NCBI RefSeq assembly: GCF_002135375.1
Contig: NZ_NEGH01000007.1
Span: 2,907-42,906, forward strand
Direction of reading: 5' to 3'
DNA from: Acinetobacter sp. ANC 4558
GTDB taxonomy: Bacteria > Pseudomonadota > Gammaproteobacteria > Pseudomonadales > Moraxellaceae
Length of the DNA: 40,000 bases
The position numbers were made by a program, and so were the translations under genes. The notes beneath the pieces were generated by a model. It saw nothing but the letters and a program-made list of their open reading frames with translations. It searched no databases and had not been told where the DNA came from. Position 1 is the first letter of the stretch, and each line of letters starts with the position of its first letter. This document shows, one piece after another, positions 10,655 to 18,574 of this stretch.

Positions 10655-12373
10655 TTATACGATTATTGGGTTACTGATTGCATCCATGAAATTATCATCC
10701 GATGAAGCATCAATAGTTGTCAGCACGATTCGATTGATACCCATTAAAGCTGCAACAGCACCATCAATTTTCTTAAAACTCTTTTCCTTATCTGGAAATT
10801 CTGTTTCATTTTTTCCAGTCTTAGAGATTACGTTGCCAATCATCCATGACAATATTGGATTGCCATCATGATGGAATCGCCCTGATGCAATTGCTGCTTC
10901 AAGCTCTTTCATGGCTGGTGAAAATGTTTTGGTATTTTTAGGGATCTTGATTGATGTATATCCTGCATCATCAATATTTTTTGCAATCTGAAAACCTCCC
11001 CACTCGTCATATGGGACCTCTTTAACCTTTAGATTACTGGCATCATCAATGATCTCTTGCGCTATTTCATTTAAATCATTTTCAGCATCACCACTGATAG
11101 TGAGCAATTCTAAGTTCAACCACTTTTGATATCGCTCAGTTACTTGCTTTTCATCACCGTTATAAACAGTGTCATAAGGTAAGTAGAACCTTGGCTTAAT
11201 GCTGTAGTAGTGAATCTTCCCTTTAATAACCCGATAAAAGAGATTAATTCGTGCCGCAATATCAATCTTTGAAGATAAATCAACACAAATCATGCAAGCA
11301 TCATTACTAAAATCTTCAATTTTCAATGAAGTGTCTTTGCAGCGATTCCATTGCTCCATGTTAAAAAACGCTGATTTTGCAGAAACCCATACATTGAGAT
11401 GTTTTGTTTTAAAGGCATTCTGCTTAGATGCACTCTGAATTGCACGACGTTGCTGCGACTCTAAGTAATCTGCATATACAGATACACCATAGTTTGGGTT
11501 CGCTTTCTGCAACACTTTTGGATCAGTCCAATCATCCCCTTCATCAATTGTAAAGATGAACCCAAACAACTCGTCATCTGGAACAGTGCCCTCAAGCATC
11601 TCCTGAACGCGAATTTGAAGATCATAACAAGGGCCTTCAATATTAAAACCCGATGTGGTGATTGTAAAAATCAACGGTTGTCGACGTGCCCCCATTCCTG
11701 TTTGCATCGTGTCGTATAGCGCAGAAGTGGGATGTTCATGGAATTCATCAACAATTGCACAATGTGGACTCTGACCATCTGGTGGATCTCCAATAATGGT
11801 TTCAAATAAAGAACCATCTTCAGGAATTTCCAAACTGCCTGCATTAATTAGTATGCCAGCAGCTTCAACTAATTCAGGTGATCGTGCAGCCATCAGTCGA
11901 GCTGGTTTAAATACTTCCCATGCTTGTTTTTCAGTAGTAGCACCTGCATAAACCTCAGAACCAAACTCCCCATCGTTCGCAAACATATTAAGGGCAACAC
12001 CTGCTGCAATAGCAGACTTGCCATTCTTACGCGGTACATTCCAATAGCTCTCACGAAAACGCCGATATCCATCTTTCTTTCGCACCCATCCAAATGTGCA
12101 TGCGATTCCGAATTTTTGCCAAGGCTCGAGCGAAATTAACATTCGCTTCATCGCCCATTCACCCTTCGTGTGAGGTAAAAGTTCTATAAAAGCTATCTTT
12201 TTTTCAGCTAATTTAGCGTCGAATTTATATAAAAAATCTTTATTTTTGCTATTTTTTAGGTCGTTTAAGTGTCTTTCACAAGCTAATTTCACCCATTTGC
12301 ATGCTGGAATTTTATTTGAAATGACTTGTTTAGCCCACTTATTTGCAATATCTACGTTCGGGTAAGCCGTCAT
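10655..12373 (-). CDS. terL: Terminase large subunit
   Basis: A 572-aa ORF with an ATPase region (VPRKNGKSAIAAG, Walker A-like) and DEFHEH (Walker B-like), followed by a nuclease half. Confidence 0.9.
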   Translation of the reverse strand: MTAYPNVDIANKWAKQVISNKIPACKWVKLACERHLNDLKNSKNKDFLYKFDAKLAEKKIAFIELLPHTKGEWAMKRMLISLEPWQKFGIACTFGWVRKKDGYRRFRESYWNVPRKNGKSAIAAGVALNMFANDGEFGSEVYAGATTEKQAWEVFKPARLMAARSPELVEAAGILINAGSLEIPEDGSLFETIIGDPPDGQSPHCAIVDEFHEHPTSALYDTMQTGMGARRQPLIFTITTSGFNIEGPCYDLQIRVQEMLEGTVPDDELFGFIFTIDEGDDWTDPKVLQKANPNYGVSVYADYLESQQRRAIQSASKQNAFKTKHLNVWVSAKSAFFNMEQWNRCKDTSLKIEDFSNDACMICVDLSSKIDIAARINLFYRVIKGKIHYYSIKPRFYLPYDTVYNGDEKQVTERYQKWLNLELLTISGDAENDLNEIAQEIIDDASNLKVKEVPYDEWGGFQIAKNIDDAGYTSIKIPKNTKTFSPAMKELEAAIASGRFHHDGNPILSWMIGNVISKTGKNETEFPDKEKSFKKIDGAVAALMGINRIVLTTIDASSDDNFMDAISNPIIV

Positions 12374-12384
12374 TTCAACCCCAT

Positions 12385-12834
12385 TTACATATTAAGCACC
12401 TTCGCAAAACGGTTTTCATTTGGCTTCTTTTGTGCACCTGTTAAGCGTGTACGAGAAGAAGGATCAAGCCCCAACATTGCCCCAAAAGAAGCCATTTGTT
12501 TTGATGCCTCATTGAGAGCTGTTAGTGCAGGATTTTTAATTACACTTCCTTGATCGGTGGTTAGCGTAATCCCCATCAATGCTACTTCTTGCTGTGATTT
12601 TCTTAGGTTTTCATAGGCAATACAGAACATTTCAACATTGTGCATATCGGTTATTTTTAGCGTCTTTCTTTCCAGTAATTTTGGTACAACAGACCGCCAC
12701 ATAATAGATGCATTTTCCATCCCTTCCATGTAGTCAGGAACCACTATATCAAACACACCTTCAAAGTCATTGCTTGGGTCGGGCTTCACTTTTGTTTTTC
12801 GACCGACTCCAGCGACTGCCTTAACTCCACCCAT
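12385..12834 (-). CDS. terS: Terminase small subunit (P27-family-like)
   Basis: A 149-aa ORF immediately upstream of terL, in a phage that also carries an HNH endonuclease. Confidence 0.7.
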   Translation of the reverse strand: MGGVKAVAGVGRKTKVKPDPSNDFEGVFDIVVPDYMEGMENASIMWRSVVPKLLERKTLKITDMHNVEMFCIAYENLRKSQQEVALMGITLTTDQGSVIKNPALTALNEASKQMASFGAMLGLDPSSRTRLTGAQKKPNENRFAKVLNM

Positions 12835-13408: not shown

Positions 13409-13699
13409 TTAACCTCCTGAGCAGTCCTTTAAGTATTGAACACATATGTTTTCAAAGAACATAAATGTTTCTTTTTGAATGAATTCATATTTCCCATTAA
13501 ATAAAAGAGAAAACTTCTCACCTACTCTCCTAAAGGAAAACACCACATCATCCGCTGACATATCAAATATCACGCTACGACCAGTTCTTTCGTGAAATAA
13601 ACACTTGATGCTTGTGTTTTGTTCATTCCATGAATCAACAAAACTTTTAAACTCTTGAGCAACAGCACCTTTTTCAATATCAAACCACTTACTACTCAT
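13409..13699 (-). CDS. Hypothetical protein
   Basis: A 96-aa ORF that overlaps the HNH gene by 4 nt. Confidence 0.5.
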   Translation of the reverse strand: MSSKWFDIEKGAVAQEFKSFVDSWNEQNTSIKCLFHERTGRSVIFDMSADDVVFSFRRVGEKFSLLFNGKYEFIQKETFMFFENICVQYLKDCSGG

Positions 13700-14055
13700 A
13701 TCTTTCCTTCCATCGCTGTTTTTTCTTTATGACACGGCGAGCACAATGACTGTAAATTTGATTCATCATCTGTACCACCATGAGCCTTAGCAACTATATG
13801 ATCAACATCTGTTGCTTCAGTCACTCGACCTTTAGCCATACAAGTTACGCATAGATATTGATCACGCTGTAGTATGCGTTTACGCAGCTTCTGCCACTGA
13901 TAACCATAACCACGCTCTGTAGTTGAACCTGTTCGATCTACACGGCGAGTCCAGCCAGTACGCTTAGATGCATGTGCATCACAATATCCTTTTTGATTTC
14001 GTGACTTGACTAAATTAGGACACAGCGACTCTCTACATGGTCTGCTCATAATCAC
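13696..14055 (-). CDS. HNH endonuclease (packaging-associated)
   Basis: Motif DVDHIVAKAHGGTDDESNLQSLCSPCHKEKT, plus an N-terminal Cys cluster. It lies upstream of the terminase genes, as in HK97-like cos phages. Confidence 0.9.
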   Translation of the reverse strand: MIMSRPCRESLCPNLVKSRNQKGYCDAHASKRTGWTRRVDRTGSTTERGYGYQWQKLRKRILQRDQYLCVTCMAKGRVTEATDVDHIVAKAHGGTDDESNLQSLCSPCHKEKTAMEGKI

Positions 14056-14319: not shown

Positions 14320-14706
14320 TTAATTAATCTTTAGGTCAATATCAGAAATGATTGATTGTGGTTTGAAGGTAACTTTGTAGTGATAAGCACTAACACCCTT
14401 ACCACCTAATTGCTCAGAAAAATAAGTCACATTATCTGAAATACCTAAAGAATGTTTCTTGTACTCAGAAGGACCTGTTTTGCAAGTAACATCAACCTTA
14501 CGATCACTAATCACATCAAATGAGCATTTACCCTCTATCGTTAAAATATAGTCGTTGGTGATACCGTTATAAAACACAACACGGCGATCTAATTCAAAAT
14601 TATCGGCAGCATAAGATAGGTTTTTAGATGCCACTTGAGCATCACGAGCGCAACCAACAAATGTCATAACAGACATCAAACTAATAGCGATTAGTGATTT
14701 CTTCAT
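14320..14706 (-). CDS. Lipoprotein (128 aa), function unknown
   Basis: The internal start M63 of the track ORF (ATG 14706, with AGGAG upstream) gives MKKSLIAISLMSVMTFVGCARD, which contains a lipobox FVGC. Confidence 0.7.
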   Translation of the reverse strand: MKKSLIAISLMSVMTFVGCARDAQVASKNLSYAADNFELDRRVVFYNGITNDYILTIEGKCSFDVISDRKVDVTCKTGPSEYKKHSLGISDNVTYFSEQLGGKGVSAYHYKVTFKPQSIISDIDLKIN

Positions 14707-14720
14707 TTCTTTACTCCTAA

Positions 14721-14786
14721 AAACAAAAACCCCACCGAATTTATTATTGGTGGGGTTTTGTGCCAGTGGCAATGTCACCGAAGTGA
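14721..14786 (-). repeat. 66-bp direct repeat, copy A (terminator hairpin plus GTCAC-cgaa-GTGAC hairpin)
   Basis: Identical over 66/66 bp to 16972-17037 (AAACAAAAACCCCACCGAATTTATTATTGGTGGGGTTTTGTGCCAGTGGCAATGTCACCGAAGTGA). On the minus strand the stem CCCCACC/GGTGGGG is followed by TTTTTGTTT. Confidence 0.9.
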
Positions 14787-14817
14787 CGAGGGTTTTAATT
14801 AGGGTGAATCCACCCAT

Positions 14818-14838
14818 AAAAAAACCACCCGAAGGTGG
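14818..14838 (-). terminator. Intrinsic terminator right after the HipS-HIRAN gene
   Basis: On the minus strand: CCACC-ttcg-GGTGG followed by TTTTTTT. Confidence 0.6.
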
Positions 14839-14848
14839 TTGTAAGAAA

Positions 14849-15571
14849 TTAAATTTCTTTAAACTGCTCATCATCAAATGGCTCAAAACCATTCTTCCAT
14901 GGTGCCTTTAACTCACATAAAATTCTATATTGAGCGGGCGCCGATGTGTTTACTTTTAAAATGTTAATACTAATTTCACTTTTATCACTGAAATCCATTA
15001 ATCTCTTAAGGTCATTACATAAGTAATGGGGTAAATATCCTACTTTTTTTTCAGCTTCTTTGAATAAAAGAGTTGCTTTATTATCATAGTGATTATCTAG
15101 CTCAAATTCAAAATCTAAACGATCACCGTCTTGCAAGTTATCTGCATTACCCTTTTCTTGATCTGTTAGATGATTTACGCCACTAACAAAAAATTTAGTT
15201 GTATAGAAAGCATTTTCATTTTTAGGAATATTCACAATCCTAAAATGATCTGTCTTTTTTTCACCTCCAGAGATAGCTAACAACTGGATATAATCTTTAC
15301 AATCTGACGAAAGTCCAGCCCATGCAAATAGGCTATCATGCTCTGGTCGACTTTCTGGAATTAGTCGATTTTTAAAAAAATTAAAAAGTGTTGCAGATTT
15401 ATAAACCTTAGACTTATCCTCCATGTTTGGAAAACATGAAAAAGATTTATGGTTCGCACCTTTTGTATACTTAAACAAATAGTCACTTTCAGACTGTTGT
15501 GTTAATTTTGCTACAGGATGCCACATTCTGGTATCTGCCATATCTTGCCACATAACATATACACTTTTCAT
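14849..15571 (-). CDS. HipS-like (HipA N-terminal subdomain) + HIRAN domain fusion protein, putative kinase partner/antitoxin
   Basis: LFNFFKNRLIPESRPEHDSLF...YIQLLAISGGEKKTDHFRI parallels E. coli HipA VFNFFDNLLPDSPIVRDRI...FDLLSEIGRDSVGAV. The C-terminus GDRLDFEFELDNHYDNKATLLF..KVGYLPHYLCNDLKRLMD fits the HIRAN signature. Confidence 0.7.
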   Translation of the reverse strand: MKSVYVMWQDMADTRMWHPVAKLTQQSESDYLFKYTKGANHKSFSCFPNMEDKSKVYKSATLFNFFKNRLIPESRPEHDSLFAWAGLSSDCKDYIQLLAISGGEKKTDHFRIVNIPKNENAFYTTKFFVSGVNHLTDQEKGNADNLQDGDRLDFEFELDNHYDNKATLLFKEAEKKVGYLPHYLCNDLKRLMDFSDKSEISINILKVNTSAPAQYRILCELKAPWKNGFEPFDDEQFKEI

Positions 15572-15596
15572 AATGACACTCTCTCAATATAGGTTT

Positions 15597-16526
15597 TCAT
15601 AAAAACACGTTTCTCAATTCCAATAAATTAGCCTTATTGCATAGGATTAATTGGACAGTAAACTTTTTAGCAATTTCAGACATTAATGCTGGAGGTACTT
15701 TTTGTATTATTTTCCAAACAATTTCTTCTGTTACATTATCGTTCAAACGATTAAGCCAAGATAATGCAGCACCTTTTTCTTTCAGACCATAAAAATGAAA
15801 GGCATCCAATAATTTAAGTCGCTTATTATTAGAAGGACTATGAAATTGAGATCGCGCTTTTTTTACATATACTGAAAGCATTTGTCCTTTATCTTTAGTA
15901 TTTAACCGTGTATTTCGCACTTCATCACTCTCATTCCTAGCAAGACTCGCACCATGATCATAACTAGGTGCTAAATGCTTTCCAGAAATTGAACTAATCA
16001 TTCCCCAATTTTCATTGTGTCTATCTTGATTTGCAATTAAAGCATCAAACATAAGATAACCCACAAAAAATTCACTAGCTGAATCAATCTTTTCATAAGA
16101 AATTGATTCAATTGGTTTTAATCCAATCATATTAGTCATAACACTGTGAACATGATCAATATATTGAATATTTGGATTTTCACCATTTGCATCCAAATAA
16201 GTCTGTAGTAATAGATTCCCAGCTAAGAGCTGTTGATCTGTTCGATTGATAAAATTAGGCGTAATAACCCCCCTTTCGGAGTTATATGTTGCTAACTCAT
16301 AATGAGCATGAGGTAATCCAATTAACTCAGCAAGCTCACAAGCAATTTTTTCTGCCCAATCTTCACCATACCTAAAACCATCTTTTGTTTTTGTGCTTTT
16401 GAAAAGAATATCCTTTTTAGTATCACGCTCCAAATACCAAAACTTACTTTTCGTTCCAAGTTGCTCATATGAGTCTTCCTCTTCCTGAGATATATCATGA
16501 ACTGTATAAAACTCAATGTCTGTCAT
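15597..16526 (-). CDS. HipA-family serine/threonine kinase lacking the N-terminal subdomain (HipT-like architecture)
   Basis: Catalytic motif DALIANQDRHNENWG, a downstream APSYDHGASL, and LGTKSKFWY in the nucleotide-loop position. At 309 aa it is shorter than the ~440 aa of full-length HipA. Confidence 0.8.
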   Translation of the reverse strand: MTDIEFYTVHDISQEEEDSYEQLGTKSKFWYLERDTKKDILFKSTKTKDGFRYGEDWAEKIACELAELIGLPHAHYELATYNSERGVITPNFINRTDQQLLAGNLLLQTYLDANGENPNIQYIDHVHSVMTNMIGLKPIESISYEKIDSASEFFVGYLMFDALIANQDRHNENWGMISSISGKHLAPSYDHGASLARNESDEVRNTRLNTKDKGQMLSVYVKKARSQFHSPSNNKRLKLLDAFHFYGLKEKGAALSWLNRLNDNVTEEIVWKIIQKVPPALMSEIAKKFTVQLILCNKANLLELRNVFL

Positions 16527-16576
16527 AATGGTGTTTGAAAATTATAAGGTACTTATAAAAAGGTTAATAGAGCTAT

Positions 16577-16593
16577 GCGACACAAAATGTCGC
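16577..16593. promoter_or_regulatory. Palindrome GCGACA-N5-TGTCGC upstream of the kinase promoter candidate
   Basis: A perfect 6-bp inverted repeat. It lies just upstream of a minus-strand TTAACC-N16-TATAAT promoter candidate that ends ~14 nt before the kinase ATG. Confidence 0.35.
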
Positions 16594-16694
16594 CATAGAA
16601 TAAGGATTAGTATAAATACCAAACATTAATATGACTAGGCTCAATTTGTTACTAAACAAAACCCCGAAAATACGAAGTTTTATCTCTAAATGTT

Positions 16695-16904
16695 TTATAA
16701 AATAATATTTTTATCCAAATCCACAACTACTGGATTTAGAATCGATCGATTATTATCAACCTCATTAGATGCAGCAAGAGTAATTACTTTTTTTCGATCA
16801 ATAGTACCATTTGTATAAATATCCTCAGCCGTCACAGGTAATCTTATTTGACCTGAATCAACTGTATAAATGATTACTAAATTACTTTTATTATCAGTTC
16901 CCAT
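16695..16904 (-). CDS. Hypothetical 69-aa protein
   Basis: An ATG-started ORF inside the repeat-bracketed cassette, followed by a weak hairpin with a U-run. Confidence 0.4.
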   Translation of the reverse strand: MGTDNKSNLVIIYTVDSGQIRLPVTAEDIYTNGTIDRKKVITLAASNEVDNNRSILNPVVVDLDKNIIL

Positions 16905-16971
16905 TATGAATAGCTTCCATTTTTTAATATGAAAACCAATAATATCATATGCCTTTTAAATAAATACATGT

Positions 16972-17037
16972 AAACAAAAACCCCACCGAATTTATTATTG
17001 GTGGGGTTTTGTGCCAGTGGCAATGTCACCGAAGTGA
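16972..17037 (-). repeat. 66-bp direct repeat, copy B
   Basis: Identical over 66/66 bp to 14721-14786. It serves as the terminator of the 17058-17726 gene. Confidence 0.9.
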
Positions 17038-17057
17038 TGAAATACGACTAATTCAAT

Positions 17058-17726
17058 TCAACGATCAAGCTTTTGTTTGAGCCGATATAGCTCCATATAA
17101 TTTTCAATTGCTATTGAAAATTCAACCCTAACCTTTTCTACTGTTGATAATTTTTCAACCTGTAAATCAACATTGTCACTTACCACATGATCAATTAGAA
17201 ATGAAATGTACATTGGTTGAGGATATTCTCCATATTGATCCAGCTTATATTTTTTTTCTTTTAGGTGCGATTTTATAGCTTGAAATTGCTCTTTAATCAA
17301 AATATCAACACTTAATTTAATTTCGCTTTTTAAATCATCAGTCAATTTTCTTTCATTTATTTTTTCCAGAATATCAAAAAAATTGCGAATTCTTGTTATT
17401 ACTAATGAATTATCCTTAAACGTACTATTTGGGTATCTGTTGTTTCCTAGCAACATGCGAAAGCTTTCCAGATTCACATCTTTAAGCTCTCTAAGTACAT
17501 CTCTAGCTTCATCTGTTGCTTCTTTTAGTTTTAATGTGGTTCCAGCAACAGATATCTCAACAATTGATTTTTTAAAAGCTATCAAACAACAAATCACTAA
17601 AACCACTGTTATAAGAGCAACATAATTACCACCATCTATTTTTTTTAGAAATAATAAAAGAGTGCTAGCGCCACTTAGAATGCAAAAAATTAATATTGAA
17701 CACCATACATCGTACTTATTCTTCAA
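17058..17726 (-). CDS. Membrane-anchored (2 TM) coiled-coil protein, candidate exclusion/abortive-infection factor
   Basis: A 222-aa ORF with two N-terminal hydrophobic helices followed by a charged helical domain. The gene is AT-rich and has its own terminator. Confidence 0.55.
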   Translation of the reverse strand: MKNKYDVWCSILIFCILSGASTLLLFLKKIDGGNYVALITVVLVICCLIAFKKSIVEISVAGTTLKLKEATDEARDVLRELKDVNLESFRMLLGNNRYPNSTFKDNSLVITRIRNFFDILEKINERKLTDDLKSEIKLSVDILIKEQFQAIKSHLKEKKYKLDQYGEYPQPMYISFLIDHVVSDNVDLQVEKLSTVEKVRVEFSIAIENYMELYRLKQKLDR

Positions 17727-17762
17727 GTGTAAAACTCTTTTATATAAATTTTTTTTAATTAT

Positions 17763-17789
17763 AAAACAAAAAGCCCACCGAATGGTGAG
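17763..17789 (-). terminator. Terminator, diverged copy of the 66-bp repeat family
   Basis: On the minus strand: CTCACC-attc-GGTGGG followed by CTTTTTGTTTT. It shares ACTGGCACAA and the GGTGGG-T-run half with the 66-bp repeat. Confidence 0.6.
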
Positions 17790-17842
17790 ATCTTGTGCCA
17801 GTGATAAACTATTGAGGTAGTGGGGCAGCTATAAATATTAGT

Positions 17843-18460
17843 TTATAAATTCCAGATTTCTTTACTCTCGTTCAAATCCCGTAAATATGGTGGTGAATTT
17901 TTCGATATAAAAGACTGAATTTCATCTTCCGAAAAATCATTAAAATAATTACCTAAATAATGCAAAAGCTCTTTTTCAATTTCAGGGTTAATTGAATAGT
18001 GAAATATTTGCATACCATTAGACATATTTCTTCCATATTTTGAGGATAAATAAATTACCCCTTTTGTTACCAACAAGGTTACCTCTGGTGCTTGCACTGG
18101 CAACCAAGTCGTACTAGATGATTCCAGTAAATATATATATAAAATAATTACTTCTTTGGCATTAATACCATCAAGTAACTTAGGTATGTTTTTTTTAAAT
18201 TTTTTCCTTCTAAAATAATTTACTATCTTATTTTTTAGTCCACCAAAAACACCATCAGCAATTAAAAATACAAAACTAGAGACACATATCAAAAATATTA
18301 AGCCAATAATGGAAATATAAAGCTGCTCTAATTTGTCAACTCCTAATATATACCTTAGACCCAATACATCAAATGTAATAACACCACTACAAACCAACAG
18401 TATGTACAAAATAATATTATGCGTCTTAAATATATTAAAAATATTATTGATATATTCCAT
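17843..18460 (-). CDS. Membrane protein, possibly SieB-like superinfection exclusion protein
   Basis: A 205-aa ORF with N-terminal TM helices and a soluble C-terminus. The motif LLDGINAKEVIILYIYL...WLPVQAPEVTLLVTKGVIY resembles my memory of SieB-family C-terminal regions; this is unverified. Confidence 0.5.
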   Translation of the reverse strand: MEYINNIFNIFKTHNIILYILLVCSGVITFDVLGLRYILGVDKLEQLYISIIGLIFLICVSSFVFLIADGVFGGLKNKIVNYFRRKKFKKNIPKLLDGINAKEVIILYIYLLESSSTTWLPVQAPEVTLLVTKGVIYLSSKYGRNMSNGMQIFHYSINPEIEKELLHYLGNYFNDFSEDEIQSFISKNSPPYLRDLNESKEIWNL

Positions 18461-18513
18461 TATTAAATCATTACTGAAAAGATATTCAGTAATATATCTA
18501 TTTTCCAGACAAC

Positions 18514-18537
18514 AAAAAAGCCCACCTTTCGATGAGC
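18514..18537 (-). terminator. Terminator of a short leader transcript downstream of the Q-position gene (tR'-like)
   Basis: On the minus strand: GCTCATC-gaaa-GGTGGGC (with G-U pairs) followed by TTTTTT. Confidence 0.55.
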
Positions 18538-18574
18538 TTTAATTCGTTGGTCTCGGATAAACCGTAATACGACC

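Follow-up and report, generated by a model that had tools for sequence, protein, structure and literature searches.

A hipIN kinase and HIRAN-domain cassette carried by a prophage of Acinetobacter sp. ANC 4558, and its possible role in abortive infection

The stretch of DNA analyzed here, referred to as the window, comprises 40,000 nucleotides (nt) of Acinetobacter sp. ANC 4558, and all coordinates are given in its numbering. On its minus strand lie two adjacent genes which, judged by their sequence features, constitute a hipIN module. The first, hipI (15597..16526), encodes a short HipA-superfamily Ser/Thr kinase of 309 amino acids (aa) that consists of the core only, without N-subdomain-1; the second, hipN (14849..15571), encodes a 240-aa protein in which a HipS-like domain (approximately residues 1-118) is followed by a HIRAN domain (approximately residues 122-228). 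A spacer of exactly 25 nt (15572..15596), furnished with a GAGAG ribosome-binding site, separates the two. Ahead of the kinase gene, an upstream control region (16527..16594) contains an inverted repeat, CGACATTTTGTGTCG (16592-16578, of the form CGACA-N5-TGWCG), located about 30 nt upstream of a perfect TATAAT (16546-16541), which in turn stands 14 nt 5' of the hipI ATG. The 3' end of the cassette (14811..14848) is an intrinsic terminator, with a stem-loop at 14840-14823 and a subsequent T-run; control region and terminator are likewise on the minus strand. The encoded proteins are 100% identical to those of locus tags B9T31_09590 (hipI) and B9T31_09585 (hipN), whose annotations mention only the domains HipA and HIRAN, respectively. 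The 25-nt spacing recurs in copies from A. baumannii, while in Vibrio- and Alteromonas-type copies the kinase and HipN genes overlap by 4 nt (ATGA), an arrangement seen in many copies and implying co-translation of the two proteins.

HipI has the hallmarks of an intact kinase. Residues 24-213 match the Pfam family HipA_C (PF07804; E=6e-10, 39.6 bits against a cut-off of 30.5), and the PADLOC profile PDC-M03A is matched at 2.4e-105 over profile positions 4-302 of 305. The motif LIANQDRHNENWG occurs at residue 163 and APSYDHGASL at residue 186. The protein begins at its Gly-rich loop (residues 23-28), and therefore lacks the N-subdomain of about 100 aa that precedes this loop in full-length HipA. 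In an alignment of 25 homologs sharing 43-78% identity, the residues expected of a functional catalytic core are invariant throughout (25/25): G24, T25, K26 and K28 in the Gly-rich loop, the ATP-binding Lys (K43), D168, R169, H170 and N173 of the catalytic loop (D-x-H-x-x-N), and D190 and H191 of the Mg site. The catalytic loop aligns with GNFDRHNGNWG of the Helicobacter pylori kinase CtkA and with GNEDMHLKNFS of Legionella HipT. An AlphaFold model of HipI (predicted local distance difference test, pLDDT, 90; predicted template modelling score, pTM, 0.90) was compared with solved structures by Foldseek, which placed seven CtkA chains at the top (best E=7.7e-14, or approximately 1e-13; template modelling score, TM, 0.72-0.81), followed by HipA of E. 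coli and Shewanella and by Legionella HipT (E ~1e-6, TM 0.37-0.67). A sequence-profile search gave the same order, with CtkA at 9e-15 and HipT at only 0.31, and a direct sequence match between HipI and HipT is marginal (E=0.011). On these sequence and model comparisons, HipI is a catalytically complete member of the HipA superfamily, with predicted kinase activity, on a CtkA-like branch, and its nearest solved relative is H. pylori CtkA, ahead of HipA and HipT. One departure from HipA concerns the autophosphorylated Ser150, whose position is presumably taken in the HipI family by a near-invariant Glu (E21, ~16464-16466), if the motif S-V-A-G of HipA is aligned with E-Q-L-G of HipI. In the same family T25 is invariant and S27 is common. 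E21 could thus represent a built-in phosphomimetic, or regulation could proceed via T25 or S27.

The partner protein joins two recognizable domains. Residues 18-103 of HipN match Pfam Couple_hipA, which represents the N-terminal domain of HipA (25.8 bits where the cut-off is 22.5, E=1.6e-5), and residues 126-224 match Pfam HIRAN (PF08797; E=3.3e-10, 40.1 bits against 24.7), while the protein as a whole matches PADLOC PDC-M03B at 8.4e-83 (profile positions 1-241 of 245). The motifs LFNFFKNRLIPES (residue 62) and YIQLLAISGGEKKTDHFRI (residue 94) fall within the first of these halves, and GDRLDFEFELDNHYDNKATLLF (residue 149) and KVGYLPHYLCNDLKRLMD (residue 176) within the second. The AlphaFold model (pLDDT 89, pTM 0.84) is compact over both domains. 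In a fold search, its N-terminal half matched Legionella HipS as present in HipS-HipT co-crystals (8ezr_A, TM 0.78, root-mean-square deviation 2.8; 7vkb_B, TM 0.79), and the C-terminal half matched the bacterial HIRAN protein lp_0118 (3k2y, TM 0.77), human HLTF's HIRAN domain (4s0n and 4xzg, TM ~0.6), and then Rad5. The HipN family comprises 259 clusters at 50% identity for E<=1e-30, and 904 for E<=1e-10; its members are uniform in length, nearly all being 240-270 aa, and a scan of the longer outliers (308-516 aa) for other sensor domains yielded nothing informative.

The original prediction for this locus had described a split HipA-family kinase without its N-subdomain, encoded first, and a HipS-like plus HIRAN fusion encoded 25 nt downstream, with no HipB. 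Both open reading frames (ORFs) were found on the minus strand at the positions proposed, with a gap of exactly 25 nt, and every peptide motif quoted for the kinase and its partner is present. Profile searches for HipA_C, Couple_hipA and HIRAN, which had been set beforehand as the means of refuting the prediction, all scored above the Pfam curated thresholds; the HipA_C match starting at residue 24 and the position of the Gly-rich loop bear out the truncated kinase, and the Pfam domains and fold matches to HipS and HIRAN structures bear out the fusion. The gene order is as described, and profile scans of the cassette ORFs detected no helix-turn-helix (HTH) or HipB-like ORF. This is the composition of hipIN, a module defined bioinformatically in which HipI, a short kinase belonging to main clade XI, precedes HipN (HipS-like plus HIRAN) and HipB is absent (Gerdes, Baerentsen and Brodersen 2021, PMC8262856). 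By the sequence evidence, then, the pair is the hipIN module, catalogued by PADLOC as candidate PDC-M03; the assignment is made by architecture, gene order and kinase length, the PDC-M03A match serving only as a proxy for placement in the HipI subclade of main clade XI.

The manner in which the HipS-like domain might act on the kinase deserves separate comment. An invariant R75 in HipN ('ESRPE', with R75-P76-E77 strictly conserved) lies at what we take to be the position of the HipS Trp65 plug, by a motif-level alignment to the HipA sequence FNFFDNLLPDS. If this correspondence holds, it suggests that the contact chemistry between HipN and HipI would differ from that in HipBST. It also lends some substance to the view that HipN is a required subunit which completes the kinase, its HIRAN domain bringing the enzyme to DNA 3' ends where DNA-associated phage or host proteins would be phosphorylated; defence could still result, by direct targeting rather than by release of a toxin. 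HipN appears to be without the inhibitory Trp plug, though this again reflects a motif-level comparison with HipA; its compact model suggests a rigid adaptor; HipL, the related single-chain form, is easier to explain as a constitutive holoenzyme; and in one Vibrio locus, an intact kinase persists alongside a truncated HIRAN domain. The homologous N-subdomain is, moreover, integral to active HipA, and HipS is its structural equivalent (PMC10627512). Set against these considerations, HipS acts as an inhibitor in the nearest cases studied by experiment, those of E. coli O127 and Legionella, and decay of the kinase with retention of HipN (see below) suggests that the kinase is the harmful partner. 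The R75 match is motif-level only, and the Vibrio locus derives from a metagenome-assembled genome (MAG), in which sequencing errors are possible. The apparent loss of the Trp plug and the single chain of HipL nevertheless make the completed-enzyme model a serious alternative, though one we consider fairly unlikely. In HipBST itself, the hydrophobic Trp65 plug of HipS inserts beside the Gly-rich loop of the kinase (PMC10627512).

The HIRAN domain was examined for the residues lining the DNA-end pocket of HLTF (R71, Y72, N91, Y93, D94, H110, K113 and F142), using an HLTF sequence that was checked by reproducing its aligned profile span. In the profile alignment, four invariant HipN residues have HLTF counterparts (N160=N91, D163=D94, G178=G109 and Y179=H110), among them the equivalent of Asp94, which makes the 3'-OH contact in the HLTF pocket. 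The K113 position is H182 in HipN, with K or R in other members of the family. A 3'-end-binding pocket in HipN is therefore plausible from these correspondences, albeit only partly preserved.

The association between the two genes was assessed in 45 related loci (L002-L046), assembled from contigs with exact homologs, species-representative genomes, IMG/VR viral contigs and GenBank phage records, and spanning Acinetobacter, Vibrio, Aeromonas, Shewanella, Alteromonas, Oceanospirillum, Phytobacter, Rhizobiaceae and a Bryobacterales MAG. A kinase homolog lies directly upstream of HipN, on the same strand, in every one (45/45), and the identities of kinase and HipN to the window pair drop in parallel (78/82, 59/62, 47/46, 43/44, 36/38 and 34/31%). 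Decay of the pair is also seen. In an Acinetobacter MAG the kinase is frameshifted beside an intact HipN (L012, 9044-9975), and in Vibrio albus it has shrunk to an 84-aa remnant, also beside an intact HipN (L015, 9750-10004); in the Vibrio MAG mentioned above (L022, 6863-7498), the kinase is intact and HipN lacks the last ~30 residues of HIRAN. A damaged HipS-like domain next to an intact kinase was encountered in none of the 45 loci. This asymmetry, in a small sample, fits the direction expected for a toxin and its neutralizer.

Loss of the kinase alone would suit any toxin-antitoxin relationship, and an addiction module, which would mainly stabilize the prophage or other mobile element bearing it, must also be considered: after loss of the element, HipN would decay faster than HipI, the kinase would kill or arrest the cured cell, and HIRAN would autoregulate the operon in place of HipB. 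The pair has been counted as always on or adjoining mobile elements; the cassette has no HTH protein yet retains a conserved inverted repeat upstream, so that a regulator is needed; and hipBA modules are known as plasmid stabilizers. Characterized HIRAN domains, on the other hand, bind DNA ends and not specific operators, and differential decay of an antitoxin is ruled out in the sister family HipL, which is a single polypeptide. The neighbours are defence or exclusion genes (SieB, AbiC, GmrSD) and not stability functions, and integrated prophages would gain little from post-segregational killing. We accordingly regard addiction as an unlikely account of the module.

No further gene appears to belong to the system. 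A conserved third component, HipB-like or otherwise regulatory, was sought among the small ORFs upstream of the pair (69 aa in the window, 64 aa in Phytobacter, 55 and 75 aa in Vibrio, and the 165-aa neighbour in A. baumannii) and was rejected, as those of different loci share no similarity. The Phytobacter ORF, found about 75 nt upstream of the kinase in P. ursingii (L009, 6787-6981; L010, 129-323), encodes a 64-aa ribbon-helix-helix-like protein (TFQIRITPELKAQFEAAAKDAGMSLGNWL), which could have joined the pair in that lineage to regulate its transcription locally; none of the other loci contain it. A P-loop protein of 168 aa, AAA_33/KTI12-like, is conserved in all three contexts of Aeromonas caviae (L040-L042, 7125-7631), where its gene lies some 370 nt upstream of the kinase and HipN genes, and one of the A. 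caviae loci has an insertion sequence (rve) element immediately 3' of hipN.

The setting of the pair in ANC 4558 is that of a prophage. The window encodes a CI-like repressor, a CII-like regulator, an O-like replication protein, RusA, an HNH protein, small and large terminase, portal and major head proteins, and by this gene content it is a lambdoid prophage, in which hipIN occupies the interval from the RusA region to the packaging genes and shares its strand with the early-right and late genes. The hipIN cassette has a GC content of 0.327, against about 0.385 around it, and is part of a longer low-GC stretch (14811-18540, 0.307, against 0.384-0.386 in the flanks) that three minus-strand intrinsic terminators split into separate units. 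Homology of ~82% with five A. baumannii prophages is confined to 16594-14811, the flanks being unrelated. The shared segment, 1.8 kb in length, begins 68 nt 5' of the kinase ATG and ends just past the hairpin terminator. At least five distinct prophage backbones of A. baumannii contain the cassette, in the early region/terminase slot, and these prophages differ in their replication and packaging modules; the index of the assembly collection lists the kinase protein in 121 blocks. Within the upstream region, the TATAAT and the core of the inverted repeat are conserved in alignment with the A. baumannii cassettes, and the repeat is kept through A. calcoaceticus copies of 60% identity (L011/L046), as well as at ~7950-7965 of L002. 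This repeat is a candidate operator or activator site, and no HTH or ribbon-helix-helix protein is encoded by the cassette itself. The terminator hairpin is also conserved in the A. baumannii cassettes, with stems kept and loops that differ. The sharp borders, presence or absence among prophages and distinct composition indicate, at the level of sequence, that hipIN is a discrete prophage moron, as had originally been proposed, and that it is exchanged among prophages of unrelated kinds as well as further mobile elements.

The position of the cassette also admits a role in the lytic cycle of the prophage itself, whereby read-through from the early or late operon upon induction would allow the kinase to reprogramme host proteins in the manner of T7 Gp0.7, with HipN tying its activity to phage DNA ends. 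Placement on the early-right/late strand between RusA and terminase makes read-through possible, and the prophage would make its own DNA ends by means of HNH endonuclease and terminase. The cassette is nonetheless bracketed by terminators and has its own conserved -10 box, and elsewhere it occupies non-homologous positions, including repressor/integrase sites in Vibrio and phage-free chromosomal islets. The related phage TRS1 has other genes in this region, and in phage searches neither the kinase nor the cassette DNA matched TRS1; related phages thus do without the cassette, which speaks against a core phage function. We deem such an aid to phage growth very improbable.

Other genomic contexts extend the view of hipIN as mobile cargo. 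In Vibrio cyclitrophicus the pair adjoins the integrase of 14-kb Vinavirales-type prophages, and in P2-like prophages of V. fluvialis and V. parahaemolyticus it lies directly 3' of the gene for the CI repressor, in the same orientation, and before the integrase. Genes in the interval between repressor and integrase are transcribed in lysogens, and this is a recognized site of defence cargo. The V. fluvialis copy is flanked by putAbiC, GmrSD and a MrcB_N/NOV_C protein. The pair further occurs on ten IMG/VR viral contigs.

In the ANC 4558 prophage, the remainder of the low-GC cargo island (16595..18540, minus strand) lies upstream of the cassette and outside it. It includes a SieB-like superinfection-exclusion protein (17843-18460; Pfam SieB, PF14163, 1.9e-16), a 222-aa membrane/coiled-coil protein (17058-17726; phrog_8083, a family that assigns no function) and a 69-aa ORF without family match (16695-16904), all on the minus strand, as are the further terminators found by scanning (18540-18517 and 17789-17774). 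The exclusion- or defence-type cargo of this prophage therefore amounts to at least two neighbouring units, hipIN and a SieB-like unit bounded by terminators. The 222-aa protein starts with two hydrophobic helices, and its C-terminal part is long and helical; it and the 69-aa ORF, which likewise does not occur with hipIN in the other loci, may be further cargo. The SieB-like gene and the 222-aa protein were rejected as members of the hipIN system, since they never accompany the pair in other loci, and are regarded as separate cargo. Terminator hairpins from the window recur at 93% identity in non-homologous positions of other loci (18514-18542 with L005 9803-9831, and 14815-14842 with L004 15761-15788), and shared terminator modules of this kind may mark junctions at which cargo cassettes have been exchanged among Acinetobacter prophages.

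On the opposite side of the cassette, an ORF at 14320-14892 (minus strand, 190 aa as called) overlaps the end of hipN and matches the Phage_VG64 family (7.8e-51). Its start is probably Met63 (~14706), from which it would encode a lipoprotein with a signal peptide, MKKSLIAISLMSVMTFVGC. A promoter-like site (14772-14743) stands ahead of it. The PHROG label 'recombination directionality factor' for this protein was not adopted, as the lipoprotein signal sequence speaks against it. Beyond, an HNH endonuclease (13696-14055, minus strand) is encoded immediately upstream of the genes for small and large terminase (10655-12834, minus strand), in a typical cos-type arrangement, from which it follows that the prophage will produce its own DNA ends on induction.

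Taken together, these features can be accommodated in a scheme in which hipIN is an autonomous prophage cargo, comprising a HIRAN-sensed, HipN-restrained kinase that aborts superinfection. HipN would keep HipI inactive through its HipS-like domain, and its HIRAN domain would act as a sensor, binding the free DNA 3' ends to which a superinfecting phage gives rise; such ends could come from linear genomes on injection, from intermediates of replication or recombination, or from packaging cuts. Binding would alter the contact between HipN and HipI, which would then phosphorylate a protein essential to the host; HipA (GltX) and HipT (TrpS) suggest, by analogy, that this is probably a translation factor. 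Growth would halt, the infection would abort, and the lysogen population and its prophage would be protected. Kinase competence is argued by core motifs invariant in 25 homologs and a fold matching CtkA, HipA and HipT; HipS-like docking, by a fold match to HipS from the HipS-HipT co-crystal itself; obligate partnership, by adjacency at all 45 loci, identities that fall in step and 4-nt overlaps; toxin-like asymmetry, by the broken kinases beside intact HipN in L012 and L015; a DNA-end sensor, by the HIRAN fold and the match of HLTF Asp94 and Asn91 to invariant D163 and N160; and a defence or lysogen context, by a mobile cassette found in prophages with SieB-like, AbiC, GmrSD, repressor and integrase neighbours. 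We judge the probability of this scheme to be evenly balanced. The more specific form, in which HIRAN senses phage 3' ends and switches on a CtkA-like kinase via the HipS-like domain, so that lambdoid, P2-like and Vinavirales-type phages exclude their competitors, is put forward more tentatively, as a possibility that we would not expect to hold in full.

Several observations weigh against the superinfection scheme. With regard to expression, the site has a poor -35 element (TTAACC, with a spacing of 15 nt) and was not flagged by a generic promoter scan, so that we infer the cassette promoter only from the conserved -10 box; that sigma-70 scan returned 21 sites against 25.6 expected from shuffled sequence, and no promoter claim was drawn from it. 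With regard to HipN, its HipS-like family profile matched no HipS or HipA chain when searched against the Protein Data Bank (PDB), and the domain falls under the NCBIfam TIGR03071 cut-off (17.7 against 27.8); the link to HipS comes only through the fold search, not via the PDB sequence profile. With R75 apparently in place of a Trp plug, by the motif-level alignment, HipN may inhibit the kinase in a manner of its own, or may even activate it. In the HIRAN pocket, the HLTF Y93 position is Y162 in HipN and varies over the family, R71/Y72 correspond by motif to N133/H134, and the Phe142 region has no alignment. HipI is closer to CtkA than to HipA or HipT, so that its substrate can not be inferred and tRNA-synthetase targets are not transferable; the aminoacyl-tRNA-synthetase target suggested in the original prediction is thus extrapolated and does not characterize the family. 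In Phytobacter (beside SymE), Aeromonas and A. calcoaceticus, copies of the pair in small chromosomal islets have no obvious defence neighbours. PDC entries are, according to their users, unpublished candidates without experimental verification, and another of the series, PDC-M63, gave no defence when tested. Searches of the full-text literature found no experimental study of hipIN, HipL, HipN, PDC-M03 or HIRAN-linked defence, in agreement with the earlier supposition that such pairs are known only from comparative genomics.

It should be stressed that the pair type is already known, being catalogued as hipIN/PDC-M03 with a published abortive-infection hypothesis, and that its identification here is a correct recognition and not a discovery. 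In the proposal of Gerdes et al. 2021 (PMC8262856), HipN and HipL recognize the DNA ends of an invading phage by their HIRAN domain, whereupon the kinase becomes active and the infection aborts; the idea of abortive infection coupled to DNA-end sensing, advanced in the original prediction, restates that hypothesis. At the time of that publication, no kinase family of main clade XI, hipIN included, had been analyzed experimentally. The same study places the HipS-like domains of HipN and HipL on a branch of their own, which fits the divergent sequence noted here. The pair is absent from Payne et al. 2024, and a 2025 study that noted HipA-HIRAN pairs beside deoxydinucleotide nucleases in Actinobacteria left the link open. 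What is added here are the cassette borders and control elements, the invariant pairing, the lysogen-expressed contexts, the closeness to CtkA and the prophage-moron setting in ANC 4558.

Were the superinfection scheme correct, hipIN would be the first defence system to join HIRAN recognition of nucleic-acid ends to protein phosphorylation, tying a DNA-damage reader of eukaryotic type to a bacterial toxin kinase, and a direct DNA-end sensor would join the short list of abortive-infection triggers. It might also hint at the original role of H. pylori CtkA. Control of Hip kinases has so far been grounded experimentally in two ways, HipB/HipA and HipB/HipS/HipT. The locus offers a convenient test case, being a 1.8-kb cassette with defined borders in a culturable Acinetobacter, with copies in many A. 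baumannii prophages, and phage resistance in A. baumannii matters for phage therapy.

Comparison with known systems places the module more closely. The window pair shows no architectural difference from hipIN of Gerdes 2021: the Gly-rich loop is N-terminal with Thr/Ser beside it, and the 309 aa of HipI are inside the HipI range of 279-321 aa. HipL, described in the same work, has the same three domains in one polypeptide encoded by one gene, whereas in the window they are split over two genes. Like HipBST of E. coli O127:H6 and Legionella pneumophila, the window pair has a kinase without N-subdomain-1 and receives this domain from a separate protein of HipS fold; unlike HipBST, it has no HipB, places the kinase first and fuses the HipS-like domain to HIRAN, and the sequence of that domain does not reach HipS. 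It is thus not a HipBST system, though by analogy it may work similarly, and TrpS, the target of HipT in HipBST, is not to be assumed for HipI. CtkA (JHP0940; PDB 3akj, 3akk and 3akl) resembles HipI in its catalytic loop DRHNxNWG, similar size and carriage on a mobile element (the tfs3 integrative and conjugative element), at an identity of ~20%; it has been studied only as a pro-inflammatory effector, a kinase said to act upon cells of the host via a type IV secretion system, and a HipS-HIRAN partner is not reported for it, as judged by descriptions, the ctkA locus itself not having been searched. In HLTF and Rad5, HIRAN is attached to an SNF2 ATPase and a RING ligase, whereas in HipN it is joined to a putative kinase regulator; Asn91 and Asp94 of HLTF are kept in HipN (N160 and D163), while equivalents of Tyr72, Tyr93 and Phe142 are not conserved over the HipN family. 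Finally, HipAD/DS-6 (Brenes & Laub 2025; DefensePredictor, PMC13092281), like the window pair, combines a HipA-family kinase with a non-HipB partner and is carried on prophages, in this case of E. coli. Its partner carries DUF3037 and DUF1829, with predicted HipB-like DNA binding, and has neither a HipS-like nor a HIRAN domain; the protection of the system against phages has been shown experimentally and depends on the catalytic residue, making it the best functional precedent for a prophage-borne Hip kinase such as HipI.

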